From Psammoneis japonica (Eukaryota), in assembly GCA_008632985.1 (NCBI GenBank), contig QPGO01000035.1:359899-423898 (forward strand): a stretch of DNA of 64,000 nt, written 5' to 3'. Under the pieces are notes generated by a model that had not been told where the DNA came from, made no database searches, and saw nothing but the letters and a program-made list of their open reading frames with translations. The translations under genes and the position numbers were made by a program. Below are positions 34,480 to 63,675 of this stretch, in pieces; the first letter of the stretch is position 1; each line of letters begins with the position of its first letter.

Positions 34480-34755
34480 TGACAGAAAATGAAGGCAAAT
34501 GGCAAGAATTCAAACAACAACTCCTTGCTGCTGTCTAAATGGCAGATGAGTCTCCGCTCAGAGACCGTTGCAGGAGCCGAAAGACGTGCAAGTCGGCACA
34601 ATCGGGCTGCTGTTGTCATTCTTGTGAGCCTTGTGGCTCGAAAGCAAACTACATCGCGCGTGAACGCGCGGAACTAAAGCACACAAAACTGTGCACGGTA
34701 AACTAAACAGCGCGCGATGCTTCGCGCGCACCCAAATCCTGTTCAAATCCTGTCA
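34480..34755 (-). repeat. 5' LTR of copia copy 1
   Basis: Direct repeat of 27645-27920. Confidence 0.97.
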
Positions 34756-37209: not shown

Positions 37210-37505
37210 TATCAAGCCTAAAGAAACAGACACTCTTGCTAAACCAAAATGCCACCTCTTACAGTGTTACAAAAATACTTTAGGTTGAGTTGGTAGGGCC
37301 TGAGCTAGAGAAATACCGTAGTACCTGCGGTGTCATCATGCTTATGTTCGTTTGGCAGTTTGAATTTCCAACAACAGTTTCCGTGCGTATCAACGTTCGT
37401 GTTATTTTCTTGAGCACAAACAACAAACAAACGATGAGGAAATGGGAATGAGGAAGCATACTTTCAACTTGCGCCGTCGCCCGTCGCGTCGTCTAATGCA
37501 TCAAA

Positions 37506-41949: not shown

Positions 41950-42279
41950 GACGAAATTGCTATAGAAGTAGTGTTTTGATTTAGCTACAATCGTAGAGGA
42001 CCGGAGCTGAACTTCCAACCTTGCCTTATCAATTTCAAATTACAGTAGCCAACCGCGGGCGCGCGCATCGAGTGCGCATCAGCCGTTAAAACTGATCCGT
42101 TCAACGCTCGCACCGCAAGCAAGGAACTCACAAACTCCAAAACTCCGTCACAAAATTCACGATGCATGCCGCAAGTGGGAACTGTGGCAACAATTACAAG
42201 GCAATCAAACTCTTTATCAGTCCAATACCCTGTGAAGATTGTCAACTAGTTCTGATGGCTAGTAGCTAGGCATTATAAC

Positions 42280-43359
42280 ATGCGATTGATTTTGTTATTA
42301 TTTGTACTTGTGTACTCGATTGTTTCTTTGAGATCGTACATGGATACTGCTGAATTGTTTGCCATTGAACCATTTCAAGAATCGCGAAGAGAAGAAACTT
42401 CATCAACTGATCTTTCTCTGGATCAACTGATGGATGATTACTCTGAAGAAAAAGACAGGTGCAATAATAGAAGCGATGCGGCAATAATGGAGAACGTCGT
42501 TCTGCCCACTGACATTACTCATTCCGGCAGAAAGATTCCTCGTGTGATTCATCTCACATCCAAAACGCGTTGCATGGCACAGTTGATCCACGACAATCTC
42601 TCCTTGTGGAAATTTGAGAACCATTCCGTCTACTTTCATGACGATGCAGCAGTCGACAAGTTGCTTTCGAGAGACTGGCCCGAGTTTCCGTATCTAAAGC
42701 TAGTCGTTGACAGCTGTCTCGTGTCTGGAGCTGCATTAGCAGATTTGTGGAGATATTTGATCTTGTGGGAGTACGGTGGGATATATAGTGACATTGACAA
42801 TGCTCCGGGCCAAAATCTTTTGAATGGCACTGCAATTGGCCCACAGGATGATGCCTATTTTCTGCAAGAGTGGGGAGGATTCTTATCGCAGTACTTCATG
42901 GCTGTTTCACCAAGGCATCCTCTCATGTTTGCCTCAGTCACATCCACACTGCTACGTTTGCTCAATGTTGGGGATGTTGGAAATCAGTATGTTCCTAGGG
43001 TAACAGGTCCAGGAGCTTTGATGCAAGGTTTTCACCTATTCACACAAAAGTTTGATCCTCAACATCATAAACCGCTGGCGGGACTATACACCGGCCTTGG
43101 AAATCGAACTGTCACTGTCGTAGGTCAACGTACCACTTGCAATGAATGGGTGCATCGAAGTGTTTTTGGAGGAAAAGCCAAGCACATGGCATGGGACATA
43201 TCGGGAATGACGATCTATCACGCACAACGCAAAAAAAGTAACGAATCTTGTGCCGAGGCACTCAATGCGCTTGTCAGAACGAGATTGAAAGACACGCTGA
43301 CCAGTCAGGAGTTTTCCGGTCAAAACTTTACTTTCCAAGGGGCATTCATCATTTCATGA
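42280..43359 (+). CDS. Glycosyltransferase family 32 (DXD sugar-binding), with N-terminal signal anchor
   Basis: KIPRVIH, ADLWRYLILWEYGGIYSDID, VTGPGAL; hydrophobic N-terminus. Confidence 0.88.
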   Translation: MRLILLLFVLVYSIVSLRSYMDTAELFAIEPFQESRREETSSTDLSLDQLMDDYSEEKDRCNNRSDAAIMENVVLPTDITHSGRKIPRVIHLTSKTRCMAQLIHDNLSLWKFENHSVYFHDDAAVDKLLSRDWPEFPYLKLVVDSCLVSGAALADLWRYLILWEYGGIYSDIDNAPGQNLLNGTAIGPQDDAYFLQEWGGFLSQYFMAVSPRHPLMFASVTSTLLRLLNVGDVGNQYVPRVTGPGALMQGFHLFTQKFDPQHHKPLAGLYTGLGNRTVTVVGQRTTCNEWVHRSVFGGKAKHMAWDISGMTIYHAQRKKSNESCAEALNALVRTRLKDTLTSQEFSGQNFTFQGAFIIS

Positions 43360-43501
43360 AAGCATTTTTTCTTGACATTCACAAGAACCTTTTAATAACT
43401 TTTACGTGTGTGAGAGGTGACGTGCAATCAGCGAGGCATAGCTGACCGTGCATGTAGGGCCCTAGAGGTCTACTGAATTGGGCGAGGATTGACGAGCTTG
43501 G

Positions 43502-45937: not shown

Positions 45938-47236
45938 GGTGGAAAACAGTTAATATGGCAATAATCAGCCATGCAATGATGTGCAAATTTCATCACCAAC
46001 GATCGCTTCACACGAAAGCGGGCCAAAGAAGTGTGCCCGGAACGACCATTGGAAATTGACATGAATGTCTATGGGAAAATGATACCACTCAGAACTGAAT
46101 ATGTTTCAACCTAATATAAATATTTATATCCTTTTAGTACATATCTATGTATGACAGTTTATATTGAATAGAAAGAGCATGATGTCATTCAAAAAATCCA
46201 AAATATATCCATTAATTAGGGTTGATATCAAGCTAAATAATATTCTGTCAACTCCGACGATTGGCAGTTGAGAATTCATACTTATCTTGAAACTGATTAT
46301 ATCTAACTTTCCAAATATTTTGTGGAAAGTGCCGACCCATTTTTTGGCCTTTGGGAAAAACGGAAATCGATGTGATGATGACCACTCTCTCTCTATCATA
46401 AGAGCAGAGTCTGAGAGAGTAGTGCCCTATGTACGGAACTACAATAGAGGAGCAGGGATAGTAACTATGGAACGCCAAGCTCACTATTGGGACGGGACAT
46501 TGATGGAGGTCGTCAAGCAATTAATCACCGTGCTTTGCAATGAGTTGGAACATTTCTTGACTGCTGTTCTTGCCACTGATTTATTCAGCTCCCATTCTAC
46601 TGTAGTGAGCTAAGCTGCGATTACAGAAGCCGTCGAATTTCTTCGATTTTTCTCCCGTGCTTGCCATTGTTTCCCGCCCTCGCATTGGCTTTTTTGGCTT
46701 TCCAAAAAACGTAATGGCTGACCTCGCTCCGAAAATTTATGATGGCATGGAAGGATGCTCAGTCGTGTCTTGCAATGGAACGTTAAAGATTTCCGTTAAA
46801 AATTATATAGTTTGTCTAACGTTGATAACGTTCATTATGTCACAATGTGATAGTCACTGATGTGTGAAACGACGGTACAGTAGAGCAGGCAGCTTCAATT
46901 TTGCCAAAAACTCGCACCACGCTAACACCACGCACAACATTCTCGTTGCTGCATGGTCTCTATTAGGAGTAAGAAAGTTCTTGACAAGCACACGCGAGTT
47001 GCTCCTCTCCGCCAGTCGAGCACATCAACCACTGCCGGCGAAGCCACATACGTTGCATTAATTTGAGTGTTCTGTCACTTTTCCACACTTAAATTTGTTG
47101 AGAAAAACGCGGGAAAACCTGTCATAGTTCGTTGTTGTTTCGGCTTTTCCTGTGAAGTTGTCGTGATCTGACCGAATCCGACTCATTTGCAATACAGAAA
47201 CCGTTTGCTAGTAACATAATCAAGACACGCTCAACC

Positions 47237-48220
47237 ATGAAGAAATTTCGAATTGGAAAGAAGAACAAGCAGCACGATGCATTTAGTGACGGCGAGACGA
47301 CTCAATGCGGAAGTCAAGTTCCACTCTTTACGAGCGGACGAGCGTCTGACGCGAGTGTAGCAACGTCAGTCATCAAACCAACAACGGTCCCAATACCAAA
47401 ACGAAAACGAAGTCTCTTGGGAAGAATGAAGCGATCACGAAGCTCTTCCCAAAAAGTAACAAAGCTTCCATCGCCTCCAGAGGATGATGAATCATGGGTT
47501 CAACCGTGGCCAGATGTTTCCATGGAAGCACCGACCGAATCGACCGTGTCGACAAAACAGTCTATGGAAGAGAAACAACAAGACTCGCCACAACGCAGTG
47601 TTGGTGGAGTGTCTATTCCTGTTGCAGCTCATTTTCCGTTTGGCGACACGTCAAATAATGCTGGTGATGTTTTGATTTCTTCTTGGCTCAACGATGCAAC
47701 TAGTCCAGTAGTAGCAGGTGAGGAAGAAACCGATAATATGGACCGAGCAACGCTGACTTCTGTGGATGATAATTCTACCCTATCGTCACGAGGCACTGGA
47801 GGATCGCTCTATACGTACGCAACGGGCTTTTTTACGACAGAGGCCTCTAGCTACGCGACTCCTTCGACGTATTTACGTAGCAAATCGGAGCCAGAAGATT
47901 CGTCCCATTACATGACCGACAGCACGGACTGCAACAGCATTGCTTATAGCCATAGCAGCATATCGGCTCCTTCATCCTTTCGAAAAGAAGAGATCCGGAG
48001 AAGCGCCAACGAACGGATCACAATGTACGAACGCGTCGTGCCCGAATCTGAAACCGAAGACAAGGCAGTCAAGGACAACGGCTGTAAAGATCCTTCGATT
48101 GGTGAAGTCATGTCGGATATTGGCGTGGTTGCGGAAGAGATTTTCCACGATGTTCGTGAATCCGTCTCTTGCATGGTGGACACGACCGCGGACACAGCTA
48201 AGAGTTCGAATTGTGTGTAA
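47237..48220 (+). CDS. Hypothetical Ser/Thr-rich protein (327 aa)
   Basis: ATG-initiated ORF in a gene island; no recognisable domain. Confidence 0.65.
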   Translation: MKKFRIGKKNKQHDAFSDGETTQCGSQVPLFTSGRASDASVATSVIKPTTVPIPKRKRSLLGRMKRSRSSSQKVTKLPSPPEDDESWVQPWPDVSMEAPTESTVSTKQSMEEKQQDSPQRSVGGVSIPVAAHFPFGDTSNNAGDVLISSWLNDATSPVVAGEEETDNMDRATLTSVDDNSTLSSRGTGGSLYTYATGFFTTEASSYATPSTYLRSKSEPEDSSHYMTDSTDCNSIAYSHSSISAPSSFRKEEIRRSANERITMYERVVPESETEDKAVKDNGCKDPSIGEVMSDIGVVAEEIFHDVRESVSCMVDTTADTAKSSNCV

Positions 48221-48280
48221 ATTATGTATTAAACTATATTTTACTTGTAAGACGCTGTCTTCGATATCAAGTCTCTCGGA

Positions 48281-48683
48281 CACGGTACTCTCTGCGAAAA
48301 CGACTGCGCTAGTGTTAGCCGCTGCTTAGCTAGGATGGGAGCTTCCTATTGGCCACCAGACTTGCTACTGGTCTTTCCCTAGGGCCTGAGGAATATCTCC
48401 ATAACTTAGTTTATTCTTTGATTAAGAACACGGACGGATCAAAGTCTGGGATAGGAAGAGTATCCGTCGGTTTACGTCTCCATGGTACTCTCTGCGATAA
48501 CGACTGCGCTATTGTTAGCCGCTGCCTCGCTAAGTTGGAACCCTCCTATTGGTCACCAGACTTTCTACTTGTTCTTCCGTAAGGTCTGAGGAATATCTCC
48601 ATAACTTAGTTTATTCTTTTTCTAGAAACACAGACGGATCAAAGTCTGGGATAGGCGGCGTATCCGTCGGTATATGTCTCCAT
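48281..48683. repeat. 200-bp tandem duplication of the mL40 3' coding end and 3' flank
   Basis: 48281-48480 aligns without gaps to 48481-48680; gaggaatatctccataacttagtttattcttt occurs in both. Confidence 0.93.
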
Positions 48684-49117
48684 TTGGGTGGCCCTACTGC
48701 ATCGGTGCTGAGCGCCGCCTCGACAAGAGCCTTGTTGTTTCGTGGCAACATGTTTATGGCGTGCTGCTTGAGCTTCAATTTGCACGTCAAGTCATGATTC
48801 AATTCGTTATGACGATTGAACTTTCCAATCACGTAATTGCGTCCAATCTCGTGGCGTCGTTGCATTTCTTCGGGCGATGCCGGTGGCGGTTTGGTAACGG
48901 GCGCATCCAAGGCAGCCAAGATCAATTCCAAATTCTTGTCGCGGCCTCGCTGTTCTTGATTCGATCCGGACTTCTTTCCACTCTTTTTGACCTTTTGGGT
49001 CTTTTTAGCACCCTCGGAACTAAACGATTGGGCAAACACTGCAGGAAAAGCGTGGCGCTGGGGCTTGCTCCGTAATACCAACATGCCAACTGATCGTTGC
49101 AGCTGTGCAGTCGACAT
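48611..49117 (-). CDS. Probable mitochondrial ribosomal protein mL40
   Basis: Presequence-like N-terminus; EEMQRR....Y, KQHAINMLP...LVEAA, PP..R.IPTDTPPIPDF resemble the mL40 (MRP-L28) family. Confidence 0.7.
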   Translation of the reverse strand: MSTAQLQRSVGMLVLRSKPQRHAFPAVFAQSFSSEGAKKTQKVKKSGKKSGSNQEQRGRDKNLELILAALDAPVTKPPPASPEEMQRRHEIGRNYVIGKFNRHNELNHDLTCKLKLKQHAINMLPRNNKALVEAALSTDAVGPPKWRHIPTDTPPIPDFDPSVFLEKE

Positions 49118-50520
49118 GGCAATTTTATTCTGAGATTGGAAAATGGAAAATTCTAACGCTCCCGTCAACGTGACAGGCTTTATATTTGCACTGATAAACG
49201 AGGTGAATGGTGATCAATCGGAGAGAGTAGTAACGGCCGTTGCAACGTCCAACGACTCCAACATCATGGCGCTACTCTACTGTAGAGTAGTAGGAGTAGA
49301 TAAATACCGTAGACTCTCGCCCGTGTACCGTAGGCCTAGGTAGAGACTAGGGCCCTAATGTTTCTCGCTTGTCGCTCTGGGACTTCAGACTGATGACGCA
49401 CTGACGAAAAGAGTTTTGACGCGCGGCGCGCGCTCGCTGCGCGTGGCGCACGGACAGACCATCGGCAAACTGTTGAACGAAGCGAGCGACCGAGCGAACG
49501 TCATCTCTGATTCACGGCTCTGTTTACAAAAGACGGGGAGCCAACAATGTTGCCCCATTTGGCTGCCCTGATGGCCATGAGCACTTCATGTCAAGACTCG
49601 GACAAGTCTGTCTCGGAATCAAATTGTTGAATGTCGTGAATCCAGCACAATGTCGCCTCAATCTCTTGGCCGATTGCTGTTTTTTTGGGTGGAATTCAGC
49701 CGAATGGCTCTTGTTTTGCATCATTTTTCCTGAATTTCACTGTGAAAACAGCAAGCCACAAGTCTGTGATGGATGTGGCCTGTCTTCAAACTCTCGTTCA
49801 TTTTGTGCTCTCCTTGTGCATCAGCAAAGACATTGCGCACATCAACAGTTTGAAGACGGCAAGCCAGGTTCTTGAGAAATGTCAATGATTGTTGTCATTG
49901 TCATGCTTTGATCACAGTGCATGATGTTTTTGCTTTCATGCACAATCAGCGATTGGGTGTGAACAACAAAAACGGTTTTTGCATTGAAAAAAAAACAGAC
50001 AATGATGGCTTGTTCCAGACTTGCGGCAGGTGTGCTCACGCACAAAAAAATGACCCTTTTTGCATGGCATGTGTGGCACATGGGTCACTGCATGGCCGAC
50101 TTTTGTTTCTGACTCACCAGAACAACAATTCTCTCCTGCTGGCATGCGCGCGGACACCGTGTGCAGAGGAACACGCAGGGTGAGTGCGAAACTGGAAAAC
50201 GGCCATCACTTGCACAGAAAAACACATCACAACAGCAACAAGAGAGCACTGTGAGCATGACCAGGTTTTTTGGGAGGTGACATCTCAACAAATTTTCCTC
50301 CAGCCAATTTTCTCACTTCTTGTTTTGTTTCTTCACACGTTTGTCTGACAAGGAATGACGCTTGCTTGGCTTCATTGCACGTCACGGGACTTCTTGTCAC
50401 TGGAGAAATCACTTTTGAAAGCTCACTTGAGTTGGATTTTTCAAGTGGATCAAGTTTGTTGAGCAATGCAGTGGGCTTGCATCATCAGTTTTTGGCTGAT
50501 TTTCCTGTTTGTTGTTTTAA

Positions 50521-50975
50521 CACAGCATCCACGGATTCACCAGGCAAAATTGGCAAAAGTCGGGCATGGCAACAAAAAGTGTGCATTTGGTCAAAATCGA
50601 TCATCGAGTGCAAATGGTGGCATCTTTAGGGTCCCTTTAGTGAGCCAAACTCACACATTTCTCATTTGACCATCATGGGTCTGTCTCATGACTGAAGGGT
50701 GTCAAAACGTTGTGCTTTGACACGTCTCGAGGATCAAACGTCATGCAGTGCACTCAGCTGTTGAGGTTGCACAAAATTGAAAATTCACACATTAAAGCAC
50801 GGCAGTTTGACACCCCCTGCAAGACGGACCTGTGATTGTCAGATGAGAAATGTGCATGTTTGGCTCACTGAAGGGACCCCAAAGATGCTGCCACCTGCAC
50901 TCAATGATCAACTTCAACCAAATGCACACTTTTTGCCATGCCTGGGTGTTGCCTGGTGAATCCGTGGATGTGGTG
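50521..50975. mobile_element. MITE-like foldback element with about 200-bp TIRs and TTAA TSD (piggyBac-type target site)
   Basis: ttaa at 50517-50520 and 50976-50979. Arm cac..catccacggattcaccaggcaa pairs with ttgcctggtgaatccgtggatg..gtg; spacer about 70 bp. Confidence 0.85.
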
Positions 50976-51905
50976 TTAAAAAATTTGGTGTTCATTTCAT
51001 CTTTCTTAAGGTGCAGTGGGTGTGGGAATTGTCAAATCAGCCATTCCATGTTCTGGGCTGAAGATTTGGACTTTGAATGAACGCAGATTTGATTCACTTG
51101 ATTTGGACTGGGTGAGCGTGATCACTGCGCTGCAGTTTGAGCCTCAATTTTTGACCAATTTTCTCAGTTCTTGTTTTGCTCTGCTTGCTCATTTGACATG
51201 GATTGTGACAGGCTTGGTTTTGTTCAGAGTCCTCAGACATCAGACTTGTCTCCAGTGGTGTCATTTTGAAAGTTCACTGAGTTAGATCTCAAGTTGAGCA
51301 GTTTGTCAAGTGATGCAGTGGGCTTGCATCATCATCAGTTTTCAGCCAATTTTCCCATTTCTTGTTTTGAAGTTGGCTTGTGTTTTGTCTTTGAGGTGCT
51401 GAGGTGTGGCAATTGTTGAGCTGTTCATTCCACGTTAAAGATGTGGAAGTGGGGTGTGTTTGAATTTGATGAGTTGGCGGGAAACAATCCAGACTGGGTT
51501 GGAGGCTGTGGCATCACCATCTGGTGCAGCTGCAACAAATTCAAGTGTTTGATTGATTCAATGCACTGATGTGCATGTCCTTGTCTGCCTGGGCAACATT
51601 GTGTGGAGTGTCATGGAACCAGCATGAAAAACACACACATTCAATCTCACCTGTGTTGATGGCTTCACAAACAATGCTTCTTTCTCTTCAACACCTCCAC
51701 AAATGGAGATGGCTTCTGCTTGGCTTCCTCCTTGCAAACAGCGCTCATTTCCTTGATGACAGTGGCCGCTGCCTTCTCTGGATTTGCCTCAGCTTGCAAT
51801 TTGATTGCATCCACAACTTTCTTGATTCTTGAGAAGTGCTGTGAGTCTTCCCCATCAAACCCCTTCCACCATGTGTGTTTGCAATCACACTCCATCCTCT
51901 TCAAC

Positions 51906-52181
51906 TGACAGGATTTGAACAGGATTTAGGTGCGCGCGAAGTGTCGCGCGCTGTTTAGTTTACCGTGCACAGTTTTGTGTGCTTTAGTTCCGCGCGTTCA
52001 CGCGCGATGTAGTTTGCTTTCGAGCCACAAGGCTCACAAGAATAACAACAGTAGCCCGATTATACCGACTCACACGTCTTTCGGCTCCTGTAACGGTCTC
52101 TGAGCGGAGACTCATCTGCTATTTAGACAGCAGTAAGGAGTTATTGTTTGAATTCTTGCCATTTGCCTTCAATTTCTGTCA
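51906..52181 (+). repeat. 5' LTR of copia copy 2 (retains the most TA sites of the four LTRs)
   Basis: TG...CA, 276 bp, direct repeat of 58737-59013. Confidence 0.97.
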
Positions 52182-52198
52182 GATTAACAGTCTTGCTC
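52182..52198 (+). promoter_or_regulatory. Putative primer-binding site, non-TGG (also at 34463-34479 on the minus strand)
   Basis: gattaacagtcttgctc lies directly after the 5' LTR. Its complement GACTGTTAATC resembles a tRNA-Asn(GTT) anticodon arm. Confidence 0.55.
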
Positions 52199-53119
52199 AT
52201 TGTCAACCCATTGAGCAACCGCCATCGTCGTCGTTGATTTACCAACGACGCTATTTTAATTCTACGTGGACCTCCGTATATATTCTACATACATCGGCAA
52301 GTCTACGCGCATTCAATACCAGGGCATCGGCAGGAAGTTAACGTCACCGTCAAGTCTCCTTACCGCTGGATATCTGGATTGATTATACTACCTTTGATCG
52401 CTGAAGACATACATTCAACGGTCATATCCAAGTCTATCCTTGATCCTCATCCCTTGACATACCTATTCATCGGTTAACGGTCAAGAACCCTACATATTCA
52501 AGGATCTTCGTCGCTGAAGACACACATATATATACACATCTTCACGGCCAAGAACCTGTACCCACTCTTCGGACTGCGGTTTTGCTGCCACTCTACAAGC
52601 ACACCGAGTCCAATGTACCTGATCTACCCCGGACTGCTGGTGCTCTACAGTTCCACTAGGTCCACGAGGACGACTGTGAGAGCAAGCAGCCGTGATCACA
52701 GCCTGCGTTGGGGCGAGGGTGCTTTCCCGCGTTTGTTCGTTCGTCCACAGCGCCTGGCGCCTACGTCAACTGGCCAGCCTGATCGGGAAATCCAACCGAT
52801 GTAAAACAAGAACGGTTCGGGGGTCTTGTCCACCTCTGGTCAGCTCACCTGCAGGGGTTTGCAACCCGCCACTCCGCTCGCAAGCAACCCAAAGCGCCGC
52901 CAGCTGCGGGTTCGGACGTGCCGGCACAACTCTACGGACCGGATGGGAAGTTAGCACTTGACAACGAACGGGACAACAAAGCCCGGCGACTTCTGATTTT
53001 AAGATGGTTCAAGATTTCAAGTCAAGTCTGTTTCAAGTCAAGTCTGTTCTCACCCAAGTTTCGAGTCTACCTTCGCTTCCCAACCAGAGTTGATTGTCCT
53101 GACACCATTTTTGTCCACC

Positions 53120-56100
53120 ATGGTTCTCACTCGTCAGCAACAAACCGATGGTTTCGAGCACGTGGTTGGAACCGTGCTTGCCCAAGGTGCTGGGAGTCCT
53201 CTTCGTTTGGCTTTGGCCCAAGACGGCACGGACTCACATCAGGAACTGTTGACGTTCATGCCGTCCCAAATCGACTCGCTTGAGCACGACAACGGCACTG
53301 ATGTGATCCCTTTGCCCTGTGGTTACAAGAACATGTCAGCAGCACCAGTCAGTCTGTGCATTGTCAAAGCACACAAAGGTCTTGACGTTGCCAACGACTC
53401 CTCTTTGTTCACGCATGACGAGTTCCTTGCCTGCCGCCTCAGCCCCGACTGCATGTCTTCTGTGTCCATTGGCAGCTCACCCCTTGCACCTCCACATGTC
53501 ACCAACCCGACCAAGGCACGCGACCCGGTGCGGGACTTCAAGCGAGGCATCAAGCGTGATCCCACCGCTTTCACGGCTCTCAAATCCGACAAGCAGTGGC
53601 ACACTTGGCACACCTCACTTGTGGCACAAGCCCATGCCCAAGACGTCGAGTGCATTCTAGACTCGTCGTACAAACCGACCAGCCCCGAAGACAAACTGCT
53701 CTTTGCTGAACAGCAAAAGCACATGTTCGCCATCTTCGAACGCATCCTTCTCACCGACAAGGGCAAGGCTCTCATTCGCGAAAATGTGGGGTCTTCTGAT
53801 GCACAGACCGTCTGCCGCTCCTTGTCTGAGTGCGCGCTTGCCTCCACCCGCGCATCTGTCGAGTCCTCCACCCTGCTCACGTGCCTCACCACCGCGCGTC
53901 TTGGTGATGGCACTTGGAAAGGTCCGACCCACGGGTTCATCCTTCATTGGCAAGATCAGTTGCGCAAGTGCGAGGCACTCATCCCGGCCAGTGACCACTT
54001 CTCTGAAGGACAGAAGCGCGTCATGCTCGAGAATGCCGTGCACCCTGTCGAGGAACTCCGTGCTGTCAAGAACCAAGCTGATCAGCATCGCACGCAGAGT
54101 GGCAAGAGCCTCACATGCGATCAATGCTGTGGCTTGCTCCTCTCCGCGGCAGCTCAGCACGACAGCACGTTTCAACCCAAGACGACACCTCGAGCTCCCC
54201 GACGCGCCACATGCGCACACGACGTCTGCTCCGAGGAACCGTCCGACGATGTGTTCTGCGACATTGACAGCGACGTTGACGTCCTTCAAGCCAATGCTGC
54301 CTGCACCCGCGGTCCCAGCCTCACCGGTGTCCAATGGAGACGTCTCCCTCCCGACCACCAACGGCTCTGGGATTCGTTGCCCGATTCCTCCAAGGCGATC
54401 ATCCTTGAGCATTCTCGTCCACCTCCCCGCAACCCGCGAGCCAGCAACTGCCATGAGTCTGTTACGGCCAACCTTCACAACCAACGCCTTGGGAGTGACG
54501 GTGATGTCCACTTGTCCAACACGACTCCTGCTGACTCTGGTGACTCTGCCCCACATGTGGACGCCACTTCGGACAATCCCATCCTGGCGCACCTCACCAA
54601 GCGCAAGCCACTGCCACCCGGTGATCTGCAACGTCTGTTGTCTCCTAACCAAGCCCCCAATGCCAGTCGACCGGGGCCATCCGCCGCTTCCTCTACCCCG
54701 CCAGCTTCTGCAGATGACACAGAACTTAACGGCCGCACTTGCCGCCGCGTTGACAACCACAATGTCATTTGCTCTGCCTCTGCTCATCGATCCACACGCA
54801 CTGGCGCTCTAGTCGATCGTGGGGCCAACGGCGGCATTGCTGGCGACGACGTTCGCGTCATTGCACGCACCTCTCGCCAAGTCGACGTTCAGGGCATTGA
54901 CGATCATCAATTGGTGGACATCCCCATTGTCACCGCTGGTGCCGTCATTGAGACCCAGCGTGGTCCCGTCATCGCCATCCTCCATCAGTGCGCGTGCACG
55001 GGAAAGGGCAAGACCATCCATTCCTGCGGCCAGCTCGAATGGTGCAAACAGGATGTCAACGATCGCTCTGTCAAGGTGCCCAACGGCTTGCAACGCACCG
55101 CCACTCCTGATGGCCATGTCATCCCCATTGACATCAAGGCTGGCCTGCCTCATGTTGCCATGCGACCTTGCACTGACGCCGAATGGGACACCCTGCCCCA
55201 TGTCATCCTCGCCGGTGATGACACATGGGACCCTTCCGTCCTCGATCACTCTGTCACTGACGACGACCAGTGGCACGACGCGATCTCTGACCTGCAGGAC
55301 GATCCCACTGCCAACCTGTTTGACGAATGCGGCAACTACCGTCATCGTGTCGTTGTCAACGAGACCATCTTGTCCGCTTCCTTGTCTGCCGATCACGCGT
55401 CCGCCCTCGATGATCACCTCATTCCGAACGACGACGTGTTCTACGAGTGTCATCTGCATGCGATTGCCCCCCAGGGCGATGACGTTCCACCTCCGGAGCG
55501 CACTGTACAGCCCAAGGACCCCCCCTTCGAGTCTCTTCGGCCTTGCTTTGGCTTCCCACCTGCCGATGCGGTCCGTCGTGCTTTTGACTGCACCACGCAG
55601 CACGCCCGCATGCCCGCCGGTACACACCTTCGCAAGGCCTGCAAATCACCCAACCCCGCCCTTAATGTGCACCGCCGCAACGAGCCTGTCGCCACTGACA
55701 CCGTTTGTGCCGACACCCCGGCCGTCGACTCTGGTTGCACCAGCGCCCAACTGTTTGTTGGCACCGAGTCTACCGTCACTGACGTCTACGGCACTAAGAC
55801 GGACAAAGAGTTTGTCAACACACTCGAGGATCAGATCTGTGCACGTGGTGCCCCATCCAAACTCATTGGCGACCGTGCTCAAGTTGAGATCAGCAACAAA
55901 GTGCTCGGGATCCTGCGCGCCCTCTTCATCTCTAGCTGGCAAAGTGAGCCTCACCAGCAACACCAAAACTTTGCCGAGCGTCGACACCAGACCGTGAAGC
56001 GCATGGCGAACACTGTCATGGATCGTTTTGGTTCGCCCGCCCACACATGGCTGCTGGCGCTCATGTGCGTGTGCTTCATGCTCAACCATGCAGCGTCCCC

Positions 56101-58789
56101 ACGTCTCCACTGGCGCACGCCCCTCGAGACTCTCACTGGCTCCACCCCGGACATCAGCCCATTGCTTCGCTTTCACTGGTGGGAACCCGTGTGCTTCCAC
56201 CTCGATGACTCCGATTGGCCGTCTGAATCCCGTGAGTTGCGTGGACGCTTCGTTGGCATTGCTGAGCATGTCGGCCACCAGATGACCTTCAAGATTCTAT
56301 CTGACGAGACTCAGAAGATCCTCCACCGGTCCAACGTCCGCTCCGCTGCCCCCGATCCTGCCGTTCGAAACCTGCGTCTTGATCCTCCTGATGGGGAGCC
56401 ACCTGAACCCATCATCAAATCTCGCCATGACGACAACCCCGTCGACTCTCCTGATGGGGAGATCAGGACACCCAAGATGCCAGTTTTCGATCCGCAAGAC
56501 ATCATTGGACGTACCTTCCTCATGCAGCCACAAGAGGACGGACAACGCCACAGAGCTCGCATCGTCAAGGCCGTCGAAGACCACGAATGGAAAGTGAACG
56601 GCAATCCCGAGCTCACTAAGTTCGTCTGCTCTGTCAACAATGACGAATACGAGGAAGTCCTTGCCTGCAATGACATCATGAATCACATTGAGCAAGAAGA
56701 CGAAGACACCACTGTTTGGAAATTTCGACGCATCGTGTCACACGAAGGACCTCTGAAGCCTCACGACCCAACCTGGAAAGGCTCCAGCTACAACATCATG
56801 CTTGAATGGGAAAGTGGGGAGATCACGTCCGAGCCTCTTGCCATCATCGCCAAGGACGACCCCGTCACCTGTGCCATCTATGCACGAGAGAACGGACTCC
56901 TCGACACGGATGGCTGGAAGCGGTTCCGCACCATCGCGAGGCGCCAAAAGAAGCCATTTCGCATGGCCAACCAAGCCAAGCTTCGCTCCTTCCGCACTGC
57001 ACCCCGCTACAAGTGTGGACACGAAGTTCCCCGCAACTGCAAACACGCCATGTCACTAGACGAACGCAACGGCAACCGCAAGTGGGGAGACGCAACCAAT
57101 CTCGAGATGGACCAACTCGACGAATACGAAGTCTTCCATGACTGCGGGCCCTTCAAGTCTTCCACTCCTCCTGCGGGACACAAGAAGATCCGAGTGCACC
57201 CAGTGTACGATGTGAAACACGACGGTCGCCACAAGGCACGACTCGTAGCTGACGGGCACCTCACGGACGTACCTGTCGACAGTGTCCACTCCGGAGTAGT
57301 CTCCCTCCGTGGCCTTCGGCTGATGATTTTCCTGGCCGAACTCAACGAGTTGGAGACATGGGCCACCGACATTGGCAATGCCTACCTTGAAGCCACCACC
57401 AAGGAGAAGCTTTACATTGTGGCTGGACCCGAGTTCGGCAAACTCGAAGGACACATCCTTGTCATCCACAAGGCACTGTGTGGACTGCGCAGCTCCGGTC
57501 TCCGCTGGCACGAGCGCTTCGCCGACTGCCTGCGAGCTGAAGGCTTCTTCCCCTGCTGCACCGAACCCGACATTTGGATGCGCAGGAACGGCGACCACTG
57601 TGAACACATTGCCGTTTATGTGGATGACCTCGCCATTGCCATGAAGGACCCTCAATCTTTCGTTGACACTCTCACGGAAAAGCACAAGTTCAAGCTCAAG
57701 GGTGCGGGACCCATTGAGTTCCATCTGGGTTGCGACTTTTCCCGGGAACCCGACGGAACCTTGTGCCTGTCTCCGCGCAAGTACATCGAGCGCATGGTCG
57801 ACAGCTGTGCCCGACTGTTTGGGGAGAAACCCACCACCAACGCCCTGTCACCTCTAGAGAAGGGTGACCACCCCGAACTGGACACTTCCGAACTGCTGGG
57901 ACCCGATGGCATTCACAAGTTCCAGTCTCTTGTTGGTTCACTCCAATGGGCAGTGTCTCTTGGTCGAATTGACATTGCCACGGCCGTCATGTCACTCTCT
58001 AGCTTCCGAGCTGCGCCCCGTCAAGGCCACTTGGATCGTGCCAAACGCGTCTGTGGGTGCCTCTCCAAGATGCGACACGGTGCTCTCCGCGTTCGTACGG
58101 AAGAGCCCGACCATTCGGATCTCCCTGCTCCGGCCTGTGAATGGATGCATTCCGTGTGTGGTGAAGCAGAAGAGATGATCCCGAAGGACGCTCCACCGCC
58201 CCTTGGCAAGTTCGTCACTACCACCCACTGCGTCGATGCAAACTTGCACCATTGCATGCTCACCGGACGCTCTGTCATGGGAATGCTCCACTTCCTCAAC
58301 AAATTCCCGGCTGATTGGTTCTCTAAGAAACAAGCCACCGTGGAGACTGCGACCTGCGGGTCTGAATTTGTTGCCGCAAGGACTTGTGTTGAGCAGATTG
58401 TCGACCTGCGCATCACCCTGCGCCACCTTGGCGTCCCGATCCGCAATGTTAGTTACATGTTCGGTGACAACAAGTCGGTTGTAGACAGTGCCACCATCCT
58501 GCACTCCAAGTTACACAAGCGACACACCGCACTGTCGTTCCACCGTGTGCATGAGGCAATTGCCTCTGGTTGCCTTGAGTTCCACTTCATCGAAGGCTCC
58601 CGCAACCCTGCTGACATTCTCAGCAAGCATTGGGGTCACTCCCAAATCTGGGACCTTCTCCGCCCCCTCATGTTCTGGAACTTCATTCCATCCGAAGTCG
58701 AATCTGTTTCTGTGGCTCCTCAAGCAAACTGGGGAGTGACAGGATTTGAACAGGATTTGGGTGCGCGCGAAGCATCGCGCGCTGTTTAG
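53120..58789 (+). CDS. Copia gag-pol polyprotein, open but Tyr-depleted; activity doubtful
   Basis: Uninterrupted ORF from MVLTRQ. PR LVDRGANGG, integrase, RT DIGNAYLEA and YVDD, RNase H. Motifs altered to KALCGL, ETATCGSEF, THCVDA. Confidence 0.9.
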   Translation: MVLTRQQQTDGFEHVVGTVLAQGAGSPLRLALAQDGTDSHQELLTFMPSQIDSLEHDNGTDVIPLPCGYKNMSAAPVSLCIVKAHKGLDVANDSSLFTHDEFLACRLSPDCMSSVSIGSSPLAPPHVTNPTKARDPVRDFKRGIKRDPTAFTALKSDKQWHTWHTSLVAQAHAQDVECILDSSYKPTSPEDKLLFAEQQKHMFAIFERILLTDKGKALIRENVGSSDAQTVCRSLSECALASTRASVESSTLLTCLTTARLGDGTWKGPTHGFILHWQDQLRKCEALIPASDHFSEGQKRVMLENAVHPVEELRAVKNQADQHRTQSGKSLTCDQCCGLLLSAAAQHDSTFQPKTTPRAPRRATCAHDVCSEEPSDDVFCDIDSDVDVLQANAACTRGPSLTGVQWRRLPPDHQRLWDSLPDSSKAIILEHSRPPPRNPRASNCHESVTANLHNQRLGSDGDVHLSNTTPADSGDSAPHVDATSDNPILAHLTKRKPLPPGDLQRLLSPNQAPNASRPGPSAASSTPPASADDTELNGRTCRRVDNHNVICSASAHRSTRTGALVDRGANGGIAGDDVRVIARTSRQVDVQGIDDHQLVDIPIVTAGAVIETQRGPVIAILHQCACTGKGKTIHSCGQLEWCKQDVNDRSVKVPNGLQRTATPDGHVIPIDIKAGLPHVAMRPCTDAEWDTLPHVILAGDDTWDPSVLDHSVTDDDQWHDAISDLQDDPTANLFDECGNYRHRVVVNETILSASLSADHASALDDHLIPNDDVFYECHLHAIAPQGDDVPPPERTVQPKDPPFESLRPCFGFPPADAVRRAFDCTTQHARMPAGTHLRKACKSPNPALNVHRRNEPVATDTVCADTPAVDSGCTSAQLFVGTESTVTDVYGTKTDKEFVNTLEDQICARGAPSKLIGDRAQVEISNKVLGILRALFISSWQSEPHQQHQNFAERRHQTVKRMANTVMDRFGSPAHTWLLALMCVCFMLNHAASPRLHWRTPLETLTGSTPDISPLLRFHWWEPVCFHLDDSDWPSESRELRGRFVGIAEHVGHQMTFKILSDETQKILHRSNVRSAAPDPAVRNLRLDPPDGEPPEPIIKSRHDDNPVDSPDGEIRTPKMPVFDPQDIIGRTFLMQPQEDGQRHRARIVKAVEDHEWKVNGNPELTKFVCSVNNDEYEEVLACNDIMNHIEQEDEDTTVWKFRRIVSHEGPLKPHDPTWKGSSYNIMLEWESGEITSEPLAIIAKDDPVTCAIYARENGLLDTDGWKRFRTIARRQKKPFRMANQAKLRSFRTAPRYKCGHEVPRNCKHAMSLDERNGNRKWGDATNLEMDQLDEYEVFHDCGPFKSSTPPAGHKKIRVHPVYDVKHDGRHKARLVADGHLTDVPVDSVHSGVVSLRGLRLMIFLAELNELETWATDIGNAYLEATTKEKLYIVAGPEFGKLEGHILVIHKALCGLRSSGLRWHERFADCLRAEGFFPCCTEPDIWMRRNGDHCEHIAVYVDDLAIAMKDPQSFVDTLTEKHKFKLKGAGPIEFHLGCDFSREPDGTLCLSPRKYIERMVDSCARLFGEKPTTNALSPLEKGDHPELDTSELLGPDGIHKFQSLVGSLQWAVSLGRIDIATAVMSLSSFRAAPRQGHLDRAKRVCGCLSKMRHGALRVRTEEPDHSDLPAPACEWMHSVCGEAEEMIPKDAPPPLGKFVTTTHCVDANLHHCMLTGRSVMGMLHFLNKFPADWFSKKQATVETATCGSEFVAARTCVEQIVDLRITLRHLGVPIRNVSYMFGDNKSVVDSATILHSKLHKRHTALSFHRVHEAIASGCLEFHFIEGSRNPADILSKHWGHSQIWDLLRPLMFWNFIPSEVESVSVAPQANWGVTGFEQDLGAREASRAV
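58731..58736 (+). promoter_or_regulatory. Short polypurine tract before the 3' LTR
   Basis: ggggag immediately precedes tgacagg; the same holds in copy 1 and the 12.6-kb relic. Confidence 0.7.
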
Positions 58790-59013
58790 TTTGACCGTGC
58801 ACAGTTTTGTGTGCTTTAGTTCCGCGCGTTCACGCGCGATGTAGTTTGCTTTCGAGCCACAAGGCTCACAAGAACAACAACAGTAGCCCGATCACACCGA
58901 CTCACACGTCTTTCGGCTCCTGTGACAGTCTCTGAGCGGAGACTCATCTGCCATTTAGACAGCAGCAAGGAGTTGTTGTTTGAATTCTTGCCATTTGCCT
59001 TCAATTTCTGTCA
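58737..59013 (+). repeat. 3' LTR of copia copy 2
   Basis: Direct repeat of 51906-52181 with a 1-nt insertion. Confidence 0.97.
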
Positions 59014-59018
59014 TCAAC

Positions 59019-60780
59019 CCTCCAACAATGGGTTTGTCCTTGAGTGCATTGAGGCCATGCCACTGGTCATGAATTGACTTGACATGACTGCAGCCTCTCC
59101 AATGGGTTGCAGATTCATGCCACCCCATTGGAGTGGCTGCAGCTTTGCCATTGTCAAGTTTAGAAACAGCAACAGCAACAACAGACCCTTTGGGTGCCAG
59201 TGCCCCAACTTCTCCTTGTGCCCCAGAAAGACCAAATTGTCTTCATCCATTGAGCAATCCACTTGCAGCCATGGTGAGCTGCCCAGCTGCCACAGATTTT
59301 TGTTCTCTCATTTTCGTGGTGCTCCTCTCCCACAAAACAATCAACTTTGTTGTCAACTTGCTGTGAACAATTTTCTGCAGCTGTGGATCATTCATGGGGG
59401 GGGGGGGCTCTGGGAAGGACAGCAGAAAGAGATGCATCAGCAGGAGAAGGTGCAGCATTTTGCAGGCTCTTGCACATCATCTTTTGAAGCTCCAGAAACA
59501 TCAGTTTCTTGAACACCTCCAGTTTGAAAAGTGGGTGTCATGCTCATTTGACGCAAAGCTCCAGTGCCATTGCCGCAGCATTTTGAAGCACAACACATCT
59601 CAGCTCTTTCAAAAGCACCAAGAAGTCAGTGGCTGTGTGTTGACCTTGATTGGTGCTCTCCATGGACGTGATCACTGAGTTGCAGGAAAATTCCACAAAC
59701 AGAAATGTCATCTTCTGCAGCTCCTCTAGTGGCACAACTGTCATTCTTGGGTTGCAGTGCATGCCACTGGCTTTGTGAAAATGGCCTTTTGCACATGTGG
59801 CTTGCATGGGTGGTTTTGTTTCTCCTGTGTCTTTGGGCCCCAATTGCCGAGCATGCATGTTTCATCACTGGGTGGCTCCAGGAATTCCATCTGGACCAAG
59901 CCAAGAACTCTTCCAATGTGCACACAGTGGTTCATTGGAGTTCCAAGCTGCTTGCCCACTTTTTTAATGGCACTGTCACTGGTTGAATCTGAGATGATTG
60001 TTGTGCAGTTGGAGGATCTCAAGTGAGCAAGAAGCTCAAACCACGAGACTTGTTGTCAGCAAAGTTGGGCGGGTCATCCATTTTGCCAGCAACCTGAAAT
60101 CGACACAAGAGCACAAATCCAAGAGCTCCCACACTGCAGAGAAGGACATTGAGGTGCCTCATGCTGGGGCCATGCAACTTGCTGATCCCATGGCCAGTCT
60201 TCCCAGTCAACATCTGCACAATCAGCAGTGTCAGTGGATGCAGGCCCAATTCTTTCTGGACCTTGAGGCACAACAAGTCAGACAGCTCTGCTTTGTGCAC
60301 AGATTCACTGTGTGAGATTGCTGCTTTGTGTTTGCAAGAAGCAGTTTTGGTTCCTTGAGCCAGAAAAAGCCTGGCATGTGGAGCTGCGTCCACTCTTCCA
60401 TGAACAGCACTTGACACTGCCAAGTTCGTTCATGATCAATCTTTTCTTTGCAGCTCTTCTTGTTGATTCTTTCCTTCCTATTTTCAACTGTTTTCATCAA
60501 CCTTTCAGTCTCCTCTGTCCAAAAGAACTCCCATGGCAGCGAGCTTGCATTCTGAGCAACGTGCCCGAGTGCAAACTTGTTTGATGGAGTGCTTGTGCTG
60601 CATCATCACACTGTGGCCTGGGAGGGTTTGAGGCTCTGGCATTTCTGCAATGACACCTTGAAGGCATTCTTCACAAACCTTCTGAATTCTGTGAAAATCT
60701 GCTCCATCAAAATTGCCCTTCGGCGCCGATTTCCCGTGCTTCCGCTTGCCGCCTTGGTTTTTTCTTTTGTCGAAATGACT
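59019..60780 (-). mobile_element. Decayed DNA-transposase-like relic, possibly piggyBac-like, interrupted by copia copy 2 (continues at about 51500-51900)
   Basis: TA/CG-depleted coding-like relic with weak motifs (KQNHPCKPH like RKPH; gac-ttct-tgg-tgc like DSWY near 59615). Family call tentative. Confidence 0.3.
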
Positions 60781-61025: not shown

Positions 61026-62866
61026 TCAATTTTCGCGTCGACGCCTTTTCACCATTTCCACGAACAAACCTTCGCCAAATGGCTTGAAGAGATGCTGAAT
61101 CGCGTCATCGGCAAACACCATGCTGTTCTGTGGCCAAGCGTCGTAGTAATTCTTGACATTGGCCTTGATTGTACCTGTCACAAAAAGCTGCACAATGTAG
61201 GTCCCTTTCTTGTACCCCAAGCCTTCAGCGCGGTGGTCTGCCTTTATTAGCCAATCTCTGATCTCCTTCGGAGTCGCGGTGTGATATAGTTTCATCTGAA
61301 AAAATATTGCAAGGTCTTCGAAGCCGTTTCGAAACACGCCTTCGACTCCTTCTTCATTAGACTTCTTTGCGTAGTGATAGCATGGCAGCTCGCATGACTC
61401 CGACCCCAAGGGTAGAGTTTGAAATGAATTGGCTGCACTCTCCGCTGTAGCAGTCTTTTCAAGGACATTGTCGCTCACCTTCAAGAAGGCACCAAGATCT
61501 CCAACAATGTCACATAGACTCGGGGCTGCGCCTCTAACAACTTGCAACATAGCCTTGCGCAACTCAAGTAAACCCATTGTTGCTATCTCCCAAGTTTTAA
61601 CAGCCTCGCTGGGTCCGTCAGAGTAAAATAGTCGGTGAAGCTCTACGAGCACCCAATTTTGGACGTGAGAAAACACTTGGTTGCCTTGGGGAAAATCAAA
61701 CTGTAGTAGCCGCCATGGAGGCAGTGTCAGAGTGACATATAAATTGGGCCAAAGAAGATAAACGTCGTCGTTTTCCGCAGAATGCAGTTCTGCAAATCCA
61801 TGCAGCTTGTCCAAAACTGCTTCCAATCTGTCTCGGTTCACAGCTTCCCGCTTCTGATCGCCAAACGCAGTCCGAGCCGCCAAAAGAAACACGTTATCCG
61901 CACCAATATCTGGTACTGCATATACAATCTGTGGAATCGCGACCTTGGTTCTACTTTCTGCCACCCTCAACCAATCGGACATGTTCGGACTGCTCCTGGC
62001 AACCTGGATTGCCACTTTGAGAAAGAAATGTGCATCGGCCGCCCTGGCCGCTGTCCCTGCAAAAACCTGCGACGTAACGACGAAATCTTTTGTTTTGTTC
62101 TCCATCGTGTCTGGATTTGACGAAAACTTGATTCGTCGCATCGCTCTCCCAGATATTTGGACCACCACTTCTCCAAAATCGTAGATGTATAACGAACTTC
62201 CCACAAAGGCAAAGAAGCCGCCCTTGGCAATTGTGGATTGCGAAAACGACAGTAGATCATCCATAAGGTTCGTGTATTCGGCGGAATTGAGTTGCCGGAC
62301 CTTCGAGAGCTCATCGATGCACACGACAAACCCAGTTGTTTCGCCTTCCTTCGAGAACATTTCAACTAGATCGTCCCAGGTCTGTAACACAGACGCAGCG
62401 GCATCAAAACGTCGGAAGTCGACTCTGCCTTCATAAGACCGTACCAGCCTTTCAATCGTAGAGACCACAATTGGTCCTTCGCCAGTCGTGTAGGGCGACT
62501 GTTGATTGAATGACGCAAAGAGGACAAGGAGACGGTCAAGGTTCGGAACATTGTCTGGTGAAGCAGCATTGATTCGTCGAAGAAGCTCTTTCGCCGTGTT
62601 ACCTGCATCAGGACTGAAAGTACAGCAGTTGTTAAAAATCCAACGAAGAAACTCGGTTTTGCCGGACTCGCTCGGCGCCGCGATCCCCAACACAGGCACT
62701 TTCTTCTTGTCCAGGGCTGAATTCCCTCTCGATGTTGCCAAGTATTCGAGACCTTTATAGAGATCTTCCTTCGCAGATTCTCGGTCATGAAGTCCCCCAA
62801 ATTTTTGCGCTCCTTCCCCCACTGGAAGAATTGCTTTTTGGTCGGTTGGAGACCAAACGACGTCAG
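61026..62866 (-). CDS. Second Crinkler-like P-loop NTPase + REase-fold protein (last exon; upstream exons uncertain)
   Basis: Walker A IAAPSESGKT, Walker B VVCIDE, C-terminal SNEEGVEGVF...IFFQMK. No ATG; the frame is open back to a ttag acceptor at 62867-62868. Confidence 0.7.
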
Positions 62867-63013
62867 CTAAGAACCGTGTGATAATCGATAAGTAACGATG
62901 ACATCATCCTTACCTCACCATACGTGTACATTTTCATCGGTGCATATATTATTATGAATGTTCCCAACTTACTCACAGCAAACTGCAGCGCTGCAGCGCA
63001 CAATGACACCGGT

Positions 63014-63583
63014 CGACGGTGTCCCACTTTACGGCGAGATATCTCAACGATACTTACACCGATTTCCCTGTTTCTTTTTTCAGTATTGGGATACATTGTA
63101 CAATGCATCCTACTAGGTTGGTACCATTGCGCATTATTGAGAATTATGGATTTCTGTTTTGTTTGAAACCTCGCAGCAATTTCAAATTCGGAAAAGCGCG
63201 CACGACGGTGTCCCACTTTACGGCGTGATATCTCAACGATACTTACACCGATTTCCCCGTTTCTTTTTTCAGTATTGGGATACATTGTACAATTCATCCT
63301 ACTAGGTTGGTCCCATTGTGAATTATTGAGAATTATGGATTTCTGTTTTGTTTGAAACCTCGCAGCAATTTCAAATTTGGAAAAGCGCGCACGACGGTGT
63401 TCCACTTTACGGCGTGATATCTCAACGATACTTACACCGATTTCCCCGTTTCTTTTTTCAGTATTGGGATTCATTGTACAATTCATCCTACTAGGTTGGT
63501 CCCATTGTGAATTATTGAGAATTATGGATTTCTGTTTTGTGTGCAACCTCGCAGCAATTTCAAATTTGGAAAAGCGCGCACGA
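63014..63583. repeat. Three near-identical tandem units of 189 bp
   Basis: cgacggtgt at 63014, 63203 and 63392. The unit is 63 codons and is open on the minus strand. Confidence 0.95.
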
Positions 63584-63675
63584 AGGATGCAGGTAAGTAC
63601 CATTCGATTCTCCGTGGTGCTACACCAATATTCTTACTTCTTTGCACCATTTTAACAAGAAGTTGACAACGTCCC

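Follow-up and report, generated by a model that had tools for sequence, protein, structure and literature searches.

Comparison with described systems of repeat mutation

Repeat-induced point mutation (RIP), dependent on RID/DIM-2 in Neurospora and other fungi, kills transposons by point mutation and is comparable to the process considered here. The latter was found in a stretch of 64,000 nt from the diatom Psammoneis japonica (GenBank assembly GCA_008632985.1, contig QPGO01000035.1, forward-strand positions 359,899 to 423,898; hereafter the window), which carries two copies, A and B, of a Ty1/copia long terminal repeat (LTR) retrotransposon. In both cases the mutations are transitions confined to repeats, fall in one dinucleotide context on both strands and stop at sharp boundaries, and genes are spared. 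However, RIP changes C into T, chiefly in turning CpA into TpA, and thereby makes the DNA AT-richer, enriches TpA and creates stop codons, while in the window TpA is destroyed, the affected DNA is GC-richer and stop codons are erased. None of the RIP hallmarks of C-to-T change, enriched TpA and lowered GC content was observed: the TpA observed-to-expected ratio (o/e) is 0.20–0.30 in the two copies and 0.02–0.10 in relic DNA, and this opposite direction means that the chemistry cannot be cytosine deamination. From the sequences compared here, it is highly probable that the repeat DNA undergoes a TpA-specific transition process (TpA to CpA or TpG) alongside a slower decay of CpG.

Other described systems share part of this picture. 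APOBEC3 enzymes inactivate retroelements by context-specific deamination-type transitions that, as here, become fossilised in the genome, but they produce plus-strand G-to-A changes on cDNA and create stop codons (TGG to TAG). Methyl-CpG decay of transposons accounts for the slower component (Arg to Cys, His or Gln, and loss of CpG from relics), but it leaves TpA untouched, whereas the young copies in the window have CpG nearly intact and TpA at 0.20–0.30. The A-to-I enzymes, including ADAT2/3-TadA, mRNA editing in the fungal sexual stage and ADAR hyperediting, give the same net change, A to G after T or U, and this family is a conceivable ancestry for a DNA-directed activity. These enzymes, however, act on RNA, on one strand and often in clusters, while here both strands are affected equally, the changes are unclustered and LTR pairs differ; none of the marks of RNA-level hyperediting (one strand, clustering, identical LTRs) was seen.

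One study describes DNMT5a-dependent methylation of transposable elements (TEs) in Phaeodactylum and, in many diatoms other than Phaeodactylum, RID-related enzymes of the DNMT4 type that have no known function (PMC9998398). The copia elements of diatoms known as CoDi resemble the present element in their RVT_2 domain, short LTRs, 5-bp target-site duplications (TSDs) and membership of a large diatom-associated clade; the full text of the paper on CoDi by Maumus et al. 2009 (PMC2806351), searched by term, makes no mention of deamination, RIP, hypermutation, dinucleotides or transitions of the kind considered here. Term searches likewise revealed no such process in a long-read re-examination of two diatom genomes (PMC8147415) or in a 2025 preprint on diatom TEs (10.1101/2025.10.24.684338), and no description of repeat hypermutation from TpA to CpA or TpG, in diatoms or elsewhere, was found in the full-text literature, supplements and subscription-only papers lying outside the search.

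Loss of tyrosine from the gag-pol protein

Copy B (51906–59013, plus strand, 7108 nt) is a full-length Ty1/copia element bounded by the TSD TCAAC at 51901–51905 and 59014–59018. Copy A, belonging to the same family, occupies 27645–34755 on the minus strand (7111 nt), with its 5′ LTR at 34480–34755, its 3′ LTR at 27645–27920 and the TSD CAAGT. Since the flanks are unrelated and each copy has its own 5-bp duplication, A and B are independent insertions. The gag-pol open reading frame (ORF) of copy B (53090–58789, plus strand) is open throughout, encodes 1899 aa with 16 Tyr and has its stop inside the 3′ LTR; that of copy A has a single break, a 1-nt insertion near 31443, and zero stops in register with B. 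An earlier reading, made from the sequence only, had drawn attention to this ORF and to the exchange of His and Cys between two copies of it; the coordinates given there (53120–58789) have to be corrected, as the ORF is at 53090–58789 and the element extends beyond it on both sides, and the second copy, which they do not name, lies at the position of copy A.

The copy B protein was aligned with 70 full-length homologues, the first 70, in order of identifier, with a length of more than 1750 aa out of 120 listed. Tyrosine makes up 16 of the 1899 residues in each copy (0.84%), close to the count of the sequence-only reading (about 16 in about 1890), while the 120 homologues have a median of 3.8% and a minimum of 2.86%. 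The two residues that replace it are in excess: His reaches 4.95% (homologue median 3.5%, maximum 4.62%) and Cys 3.05% (median 0.95%, maximum 1.61%). Considering the 55 columns with Tyr in at least 60% of the 70 homologues, each copy has kept Tyr at 12, while the other 19 residue types are retained at 71–96%. The replacements at these columns in A and B, respectively, are Cys (21 and 23), His (15 and 13), Phe (6 and 6) and Trp (1 and 1). Jointly, the two copies share the same derived state at 18 Tyr sites, have opposite derived states at 14, differ by a one-sided change at 8 and both keep Tyr at 8. Thirteen columns are Tyr in 70 of 70 homologues, and copy A has lost 10 of these and copy B 9; the Tyr of KALYGL is among the invariant residues that were lost, while the Tyr of YVDD is intact in both copies.

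All 11 motif pairs listed in the sequence-only reading fall on the same aligned residue in A (minus strand, in register) and B. The reciprocal pairs, given as A/B, are KALHGL/KALCGL at residue 1461, LRCLG/LRHLG at 1777, RYKHG/RYKCG at 1306, PDCSD/PDHSD at 1673, SVHGE/SVCGE at 1688 and CECIAVYVDD/CEHIAVYVDD at 1504; the one-sided pairs are NACLE/NAYLE, VCDVK/VYDVK, THYVD/THCVD, VSHMF/VSYMF and SSCNI/SSYNI. The expectation of Tyr at the KALYGL and NAYLE sites proved right, Tyr 1464 and Tyr 1432 both being Tyr in 70 of 70 homologues. In total there are 17 reciprocal His/Cys differences between the copies, 14 of them in conserved columns, and all 14 are Tyr columns; no reciprocal pair occurs at any of the 74 columns with an Arg consensus. 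A TAY ancestor, as the sequence-only reading had proposed, thus agrees with the homologues, and its objection to a CGY (Arg) ancestor holds, because the homologues have Tyr and not Arg at these columns. Nor do the relatives naturally carry Cys or His there, as the 13 invariant columns demonstrate. Ten differences of Arg against Cys, His or Gln lie in columns whose commonest residue is Arg (7) or Lys (3), and this consensus identifies them as ordinary CpG decay. Furthermore, none of the 46 conserved His or Cys columns has turned to Tyr, so the change is one-way. Judged from the aligned sequences, the ancestral codon is TAY and the change runs from TA to CA or TG.

Substitutions between the two copies

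The phenomenon underlying the loss of Tyr is broader than the sequence-only reading had recognised, and is a RIP-like compartmental hypermutation in the opposite direction. Copies A and B differ at 246 of 7112 aligned columns, by 221 transitions, 20 transversions and 5 indels. The transitions are concentrated in pyrimidine–purine steps (204 of 221), a pattern that chance would not nearly produce: the next base is a purine in 100 of the 113 C/T differences, and the preceding base is a pyrimidine in 104 of the 108 A/G differences. Sorted by dinucleotide state, TA in one copy stands against CA or TG in the other at 71 sites, CA against TG at 42, CG against CA or TG at 49, and CG against TA at 0. 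The TpA o/e is 0.20 in A and 0.30 in B, and the CpG o/e is 0.91–0.94 in both. Arithmetic on the difference counts and the dinucleotide state matrix gives rates per copy of about 0.48 for each visible ancestral TA site, compared with about 0.046 for a CpG and about 0.005 for any other dinucleotide, which means that TpA mutates about 90-fold above background and about 10-fold above CpG.

Both strands are affected alike. In copy A, 49 changes of T>C and 47 of A>G form 57 runs (49.0 ± 4.8 expected), and in copy B, 26 of T>C and 33 of A>G form 30 runs (30.1 ± 3.8 expected); the runs test thus revealed no strand clustering of TA events in either copy. Equal numbers and random interleaving of the two types make a processive single-strand editor unlikely. 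The flanking preference is mild (0.56–0.60 with a 5′ purine before the T against 0.28–0.37 with a 5′ pyrimidine), and the TA events show no selective filtering, since 17 of 79 are synonymous against an expectation of 27% (p = 0.31).

The LTRs provide an internal reference, since reverse transcription makes both LTRs of one element identical at insertion. The 5′ LTR of copy B (51906–52181, plus strand, 276 nt, TGACAGG...TTCTGTCA) is the least mutated of the four, with 14 TpA against 4–5 in the other three, and the 3′ LTR (58737–59013, plus strand, 277 nt) differs from it at 12 positions, 10 of them of the TA type; the two LTRs of copy A differ at 9. The gag-pol frame of copy B extends 53 nt into the 3′ LTR (58737–58789), where it ends at TAG. 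A four-way LTR alignment contains 15 variable sites, of which 12 are of the TA type; the other three are a change from CG to CA, an indel and a transversion separating A from B. At 4 sites, one LTR of copy A carries TG and the other CA, which implies that TA was present at insertion. The 20 CpG sites of the LTR are intact across all four sequences save one site. It appears from these comparisons that most of the changes arose after insertion, on integrated DNA.

Compartments of the window and the age series

Dinucleotide composition divides the window into two kinds of DNA. Genic DNA (about 5500–8000, 35250–49500 and from 60750) has a TpA o/e of about 0.6, a CpG o/e of about 1.0 and CpA/TpG ratios of about 1.1–1.3. 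In relic DNA (1–5500, 8000–27644, 49500–51905 and 59014–60750), most 2-kb windows have a TpA o/e of 0.02–0.10 (maximum 0.19) and a CpG o/e of 0.04–0.27 (maximum 0.40), and CpA/TpG rise to about 1.6–2.1. The GC content is 57–60% in the elements and about 47% in genic DNA. The switch from genic to relic composition is complete within about 250 nt, with sharp borders at about 5500, 8000, 35250, 49500 and 60750. The largest relic block, 8000–27644, has a TpA o/e of 0.02–0.10, a CpG o/e of 0.04–0.27 and CpA/TpG mostly at 1.7–2.1, with a sharp genic edge near 8000. TpA and CpG are both depleted in the block at 1–5500, which contains copia fragments at about 600–2200. Copy B was inserted into a further block, which now forms its left flank (49500–51905) and its right flank (59014–60750, with a sharp edge to normal DNA near 60750).

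Two tandem repeats in genic DNA served as a control: one of 189 nt in 3 copies, 94–96% identical, at 63014–63586 inside the ORF 62863–63633, and a duplication of 200 nt, 86% identical, at 48281–48680. The copies of both repeats, about 190–200 nt in length, differ by an ordinary mixture of transitions and transversions and are unaffected by the TpA process. Within this window the process is therefore restricted to repeat DNA and spares the neighbouring single-copy genes, a trait shared with RIP.

A more advanced stage is represented by an old related copia relic at 12597–14700 (minus strand), which has 73% DNA identity to A and B over 1478 nt. It has kept none of 15 Tyr (7 are His and 5 Cys) and 3 of 16 Arg (6 are His, 5 Cys and 1 a stop). 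Of the 86 CpG common to A and B, 6 survive in the relic, while 34 read CA there and 31 read TG. The marks of methyl-CpG decay are thus confined to a minor component, consisting of the 49 A/B sites, the Arg columns and this relic with 6 of 86 CpG. Comparison of the three sequences indicates that TpA is lost first and fast and CpG more slowly, and that both end as CA or TG.

Open reading frames and activity

In the standard code, no sense codon can become a stop (TAA, TAG or TGA) through a change from TA to CA or TG, and such a change erases TAA and TAG in all frames. Counted together on both strands, TAA and TAG reach 8.4 per kb in the copies and 37.4 per kb in genic DNA, with TGA unchanged. 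This loss accounts for the many long alternative-frame ORFs over the element and for 98 spurious ORFs in the relics. These stretches, which have a length of at least 110 aa and come from all six frames of about 29 kb of relic DNA, gave no significant Pfam match, the sole weak one being to NDC10_II, below the cut-off, at 60022–60429. Because stops cannot arise by this route, an open frame says nothing about activity, and in this respect the warning of the sequence-only reading that an intact ORF does not prove activity was well founded. Its further claim that the element had been disabled by missense changes while remaining open stands as to the open frame; as to the disablement, the loss of 10 (A) and 9 (B) of 13 invariant Tyr suggests that both copies are probably functionally dead, although the YVDD motif is intact.

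Relatives in sequencing runs and in other sources

Contigs assembled from a sequencing run, X1, were identical to the unique flanks, which are free of TpA, over stretches of 931, 367 and 605 nt, the first being 51000–51930; this agreement excludes an assembly artefact. The family is present in high copy number, with 12,735 contigs derived from run X1 matching the element (3926 at ≥99% identity, 4257 at 95–99% and 4552 at 90–95%), and a summed word depth of about 65,000–235,000 on the element against 46–74 on the flanks (a ratio of about 1000, which is not a copy number). Variable places across the family contigs comprise 53 A>G, 50 T>C, 50 C>T and 39 G>A changes and 19 transversions.

Related loci from other sources have a different composition. 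All 24 of these, one from a metagenome (L001) and 23 on eukaryotic contigs misbinned in bacterial metagenome-assembled genomes (MAGs) of a prokaryote-genome collection, have retained Tyr and have a TpA o/e of 0.32–0.88 (at least 0.51 in 23). Three of them, L001, L004 and L012, combine a CpG o/e of 0.12–0.24 with a TpA o/e of 0.60–0.69, and thus show CpG decay without TpA decay in other hosts. The absence of TpA depletion from all 24 loci, several of them CpG-poor, implies that the loss of TpA belongs neither to the element clade nor to TE methylation in itself. Among the misbinned contigs, L002–L024, seven are in one 'Sphingobacteriaceae' MAG and four in one 'Weeksellaceae' MAG, reflecting contamination of the bins by diatom-like DNA. 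No related DNA was found in a viral collection.

The same signature was detected in 3 of 266 public relatives, all copia protein fragments. P0228, a singleton on an ENA metagenome contig of 10,018 nt, has Cys at 10, His at 5 and Tyr at 0 of 18 Tyr columns; P0270 has His at 9, Cys at 3 and Tyr at 0 of 14; and P0166 has His, Cys and Tyr at 5 each of 17. The reverse transcriptase (RT) fragments P0228 (6.3% Cys, 5.8% His) and P0270 (7.4% His, 3.0% Cys) contain zero Tyr overall.

Timing and possible mechanisms

The proposed course of events would be as follows. In genomic repeats TpA would be converted into CpA or TpG, that is, A to G on either strand after T, and a slower decay of CpG to TpG or CpA would proceed in parallel, as expected where diatom transposons carry methylated cytosine. 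In ageing copies TpA and CpG would both disappear while CA and TG accumulate. In coding sequence Tyr (TAY) would turn into His (CAY) or Cys (TGY), and conserved residues would be lost while the long ORF survives.

Several observations weigh against a uniform process acting wholly on integrated DNA. The 3′ LTRs of A and B have the same derived state at 9 of 10 doubly mutated sites, which fits an already mutated master or gene conversion better than independent hits. Some Tyr codons (53285/6 and 54158/9) are about 90% TGC across the family contigs, family-wide state frequencies being known for 40 of 224 variable places; part of the load therefore came from mutated masters via transposition or was spread by gene conversion. 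The first ~1 kb of copy B (51906–52900, including the 5′ LTR) is hardly mutated, with a TpA o/e of 0.67–1.18 at 52001–52500; conversion by an unmutated copy, or protection of this segment, may be the reason. At 52257 and 52763, TA is private to copy B and the family contigs are essentially all CA or TG; infrequent reversals, or the survival of a rare allele, may account for both sites. To state that all changes occurred after insertion is too strong. The four sequencing runs, X1–X4, represent one sample of one study, possibly the assembly's own source, and are not an independent biological replication.

The direction of the change, its TpA specificity, its strand symmetry, its restriction to repeats and its absence from relatives elsewhere are the observed properties against which the possible causes have to be compared. 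Enzymatic deamination of adenine to hypoxanthine at 5′-TA-3′ on either strand would be the simplest route, and TadA/ADAT-type enzymes prefer a 5′ U or T; such deamination in silenced repeats is our tentative suggestion for the chemistry. Since TpA is palindromic, changes that began at T and changes that began at A of the opposite strand look alike in the sequence, and the broader proposal, which we put forward as possible though short of an even chance, is a dedicated repeat-directed editing of genomic 5′-TA-3′ by a DNA adenine deaminase or a thymine modifier, acting as a mirror image of RIP defence and lacking in other diatom hosts of the element clade. The same palindromy gives an identical footprint (TA to CA or TG on both strands) to a passive by-product, in which a modified thymine at TpA, of the oxidised-thymine or hydroxymethyluracil type, mispairs with G, or in which methylated chromatin undergoes error-prone patch repair. 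Thymine hydroxylation at TpA occurs in dinoflagellates and at trypanosome telomeres, the flanking preference in the window is only mild, and co-occurrence with CpG decay in the same compartments means that the process tracks silenced, presumably methylated chromatin. However, patch repair of the polymerase-eta type would hit ApA too and give transversions, while transversions are 20 of 241 substitutions here and A/G differences without a preceding pyrimidine are merely 4 of 108; we consider a passive origin rather doubtful.

The remaining explanations are less probable than these. Editing of RNA or cDNA before integration, by an ADAR/ADAT-like A-to-I enzyme or a cDNA deaminase, would agree with the derived states common to most family members and to the 3′ LTRs of A and B, as if mutated templates had been propagated, and enzymes of the ADAT/TadA type and, less strictly, ADARs typically change A to G where U or T stands 5′. 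Yet it predicts sense-only, clustered A>G changes, in place of the unclustered 49:47 and 26:33 observed, and identical LTRs, while 9 differences separate the two LTRs of copy A and 12 those of copy B, nearly all of the TA type; moreover, the near-complete loss of TpA, the loss of CpG and the frame decay in relics fit continued decay in place, which leaves this explanation unlikely. GC-biased gene conversion among many copies, driving AT to GC, is suggested by the abundance of the family, the GC-richness of the elements and the sharing of LTR states; it is nevertheless very unlikely as the cause, since it cannot create a strict TpA context, would oppose the simultaneous GC-to-AT decay of CpG to TpG or CpA, and does not suit unique relic DNA, which lacks a close partner in the window and yet is the most depleted. 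Unpolished long-read assemblies are known to contain systematic miscalls at methylated motifs, and a palindromic modified TpA would yield exactly TG and CA miscalls, but a sequencing or assembly artefact at modified bases is highly improbable: the X1 contigs, at normal depth, reproduce without a single difference the flanks that lack TpA and CpG, the states are discrete and copy-specific, the ENA metagenome fragment P0228 has the same replacement of Tyr by Cys and His, and a depletion that takes the TpA o/e as low as 0.02 across about 20 kb far exceeds miscall rates. The origin of His and Cys from Arg by CpG deamination (CGY to TGY or CAY) is a textbook route that does occur here at Arg sites, in 10 A/B differences and in the relic. 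As an explanation of the Tyr sites, this route, or the idea that His and Cys are natural residues of the lineage, retains a negligible probability, because the homologues have Tyr at these columns (at 13 of them in 70 of 70), CpG is not depleted in the copies (0.91–0.94) while TpA is at 0.20–0.30, and LTR CpG is intact save one site.

Structure of the element and other features of the window

The classification of the element as Ty1/copia follows the RVT_2 score, the integrase-like core 5′ of the RT and the 5-bp target duplications. The RVT_2 RT domain of copy B (57170–57805, plus strand, aa 1361–1572) includes KALCGL, with the Tyr lost, and YVDD, with the Tyr kept; it scores 95–99.4 bits in B and 94.0 bits in A against a cut-off of 31.6, within the range of 10 healthy homologues (82–115 bits). 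A predicted integrase core at 55667–56119 (plus strand, about aa 860–1010) contains D870, D928 and E963, none of which varies in any of the 28 aligned sequences, and the spacing of 35 residues between D928 and E963 is that expected of D,D35E. This core has a weak profile match to retroviral integrases (positions 904–1009, E = 0.002–0.003), and the Pfam rve and RNase H profiles were detected neither in the element nor in the healthy homologues. With RVT_2 already at the level of healthy homologues, the rescoring after back-mutation suggested in the sequence-only reading would not discriminate. The location of the integrase core upstream of the RT in pol is the Ty1/copia order, and the LTRs of 276–277 nt with TG...CA ends and 5-bp TSDs are also those of Ty1/copia elements. 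The element clade is large, with 1428 homologue hits at E ≤ 0.001 and a best identity of 71%.

Next to copy A, the ORF at 35321–36643 encodes a DASH-type cryptochrome (CRY-DASH), whose best named relatives are from Mayamaea (67%), Nitzschia, Seminavis, Cylindrotheca and Phaeodactylum. These matches point to nuclear DNA of a raphid pennate diatom. The roughly 500 nt between copy A and this ORF (34756–35250), which lie outside the element, are TpA-poor (0–3 TpA per 250 nt); they could be an older relic or reflect a spread of the process toward the gene promoter. Relic blocks with full depletion lie on both sides of the segment 5500–8000, a 2.5-kb stretch whose composition is normal and whose edges are resolved at the 250-nt scale; its 530-aa ORF (6038–7630) contains no Pfam family.

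Implications

In genomes of this kind, open ORFs and 'intact' LTR retrotransposons are no sign of activity, and dating by LTR divergence would overestimate ages many-fold unless TA and CG sites are masked. The long spurious ORFs of relic DNA are a hazard for gene prediction. If the proposed dedicated editing is true, Tyr codons, TATA-like and AATAAA-like signals and the stop codons TAA and TAG would be erased in transposons about 90 times faster than background, and an adenine deaminase with natural TA specificity on DNA would have direct relevance to base editing. If the process is real biology, as the evidence indicates, it would represent a repeat-restricted silencing by point mutation outside the fungi with a chemistry of its own, running from AT to GC at TpA where RIP runs from GC to AT at CpA, and it points to an enzyme or a DNA modification so far undescribed in diatoms.

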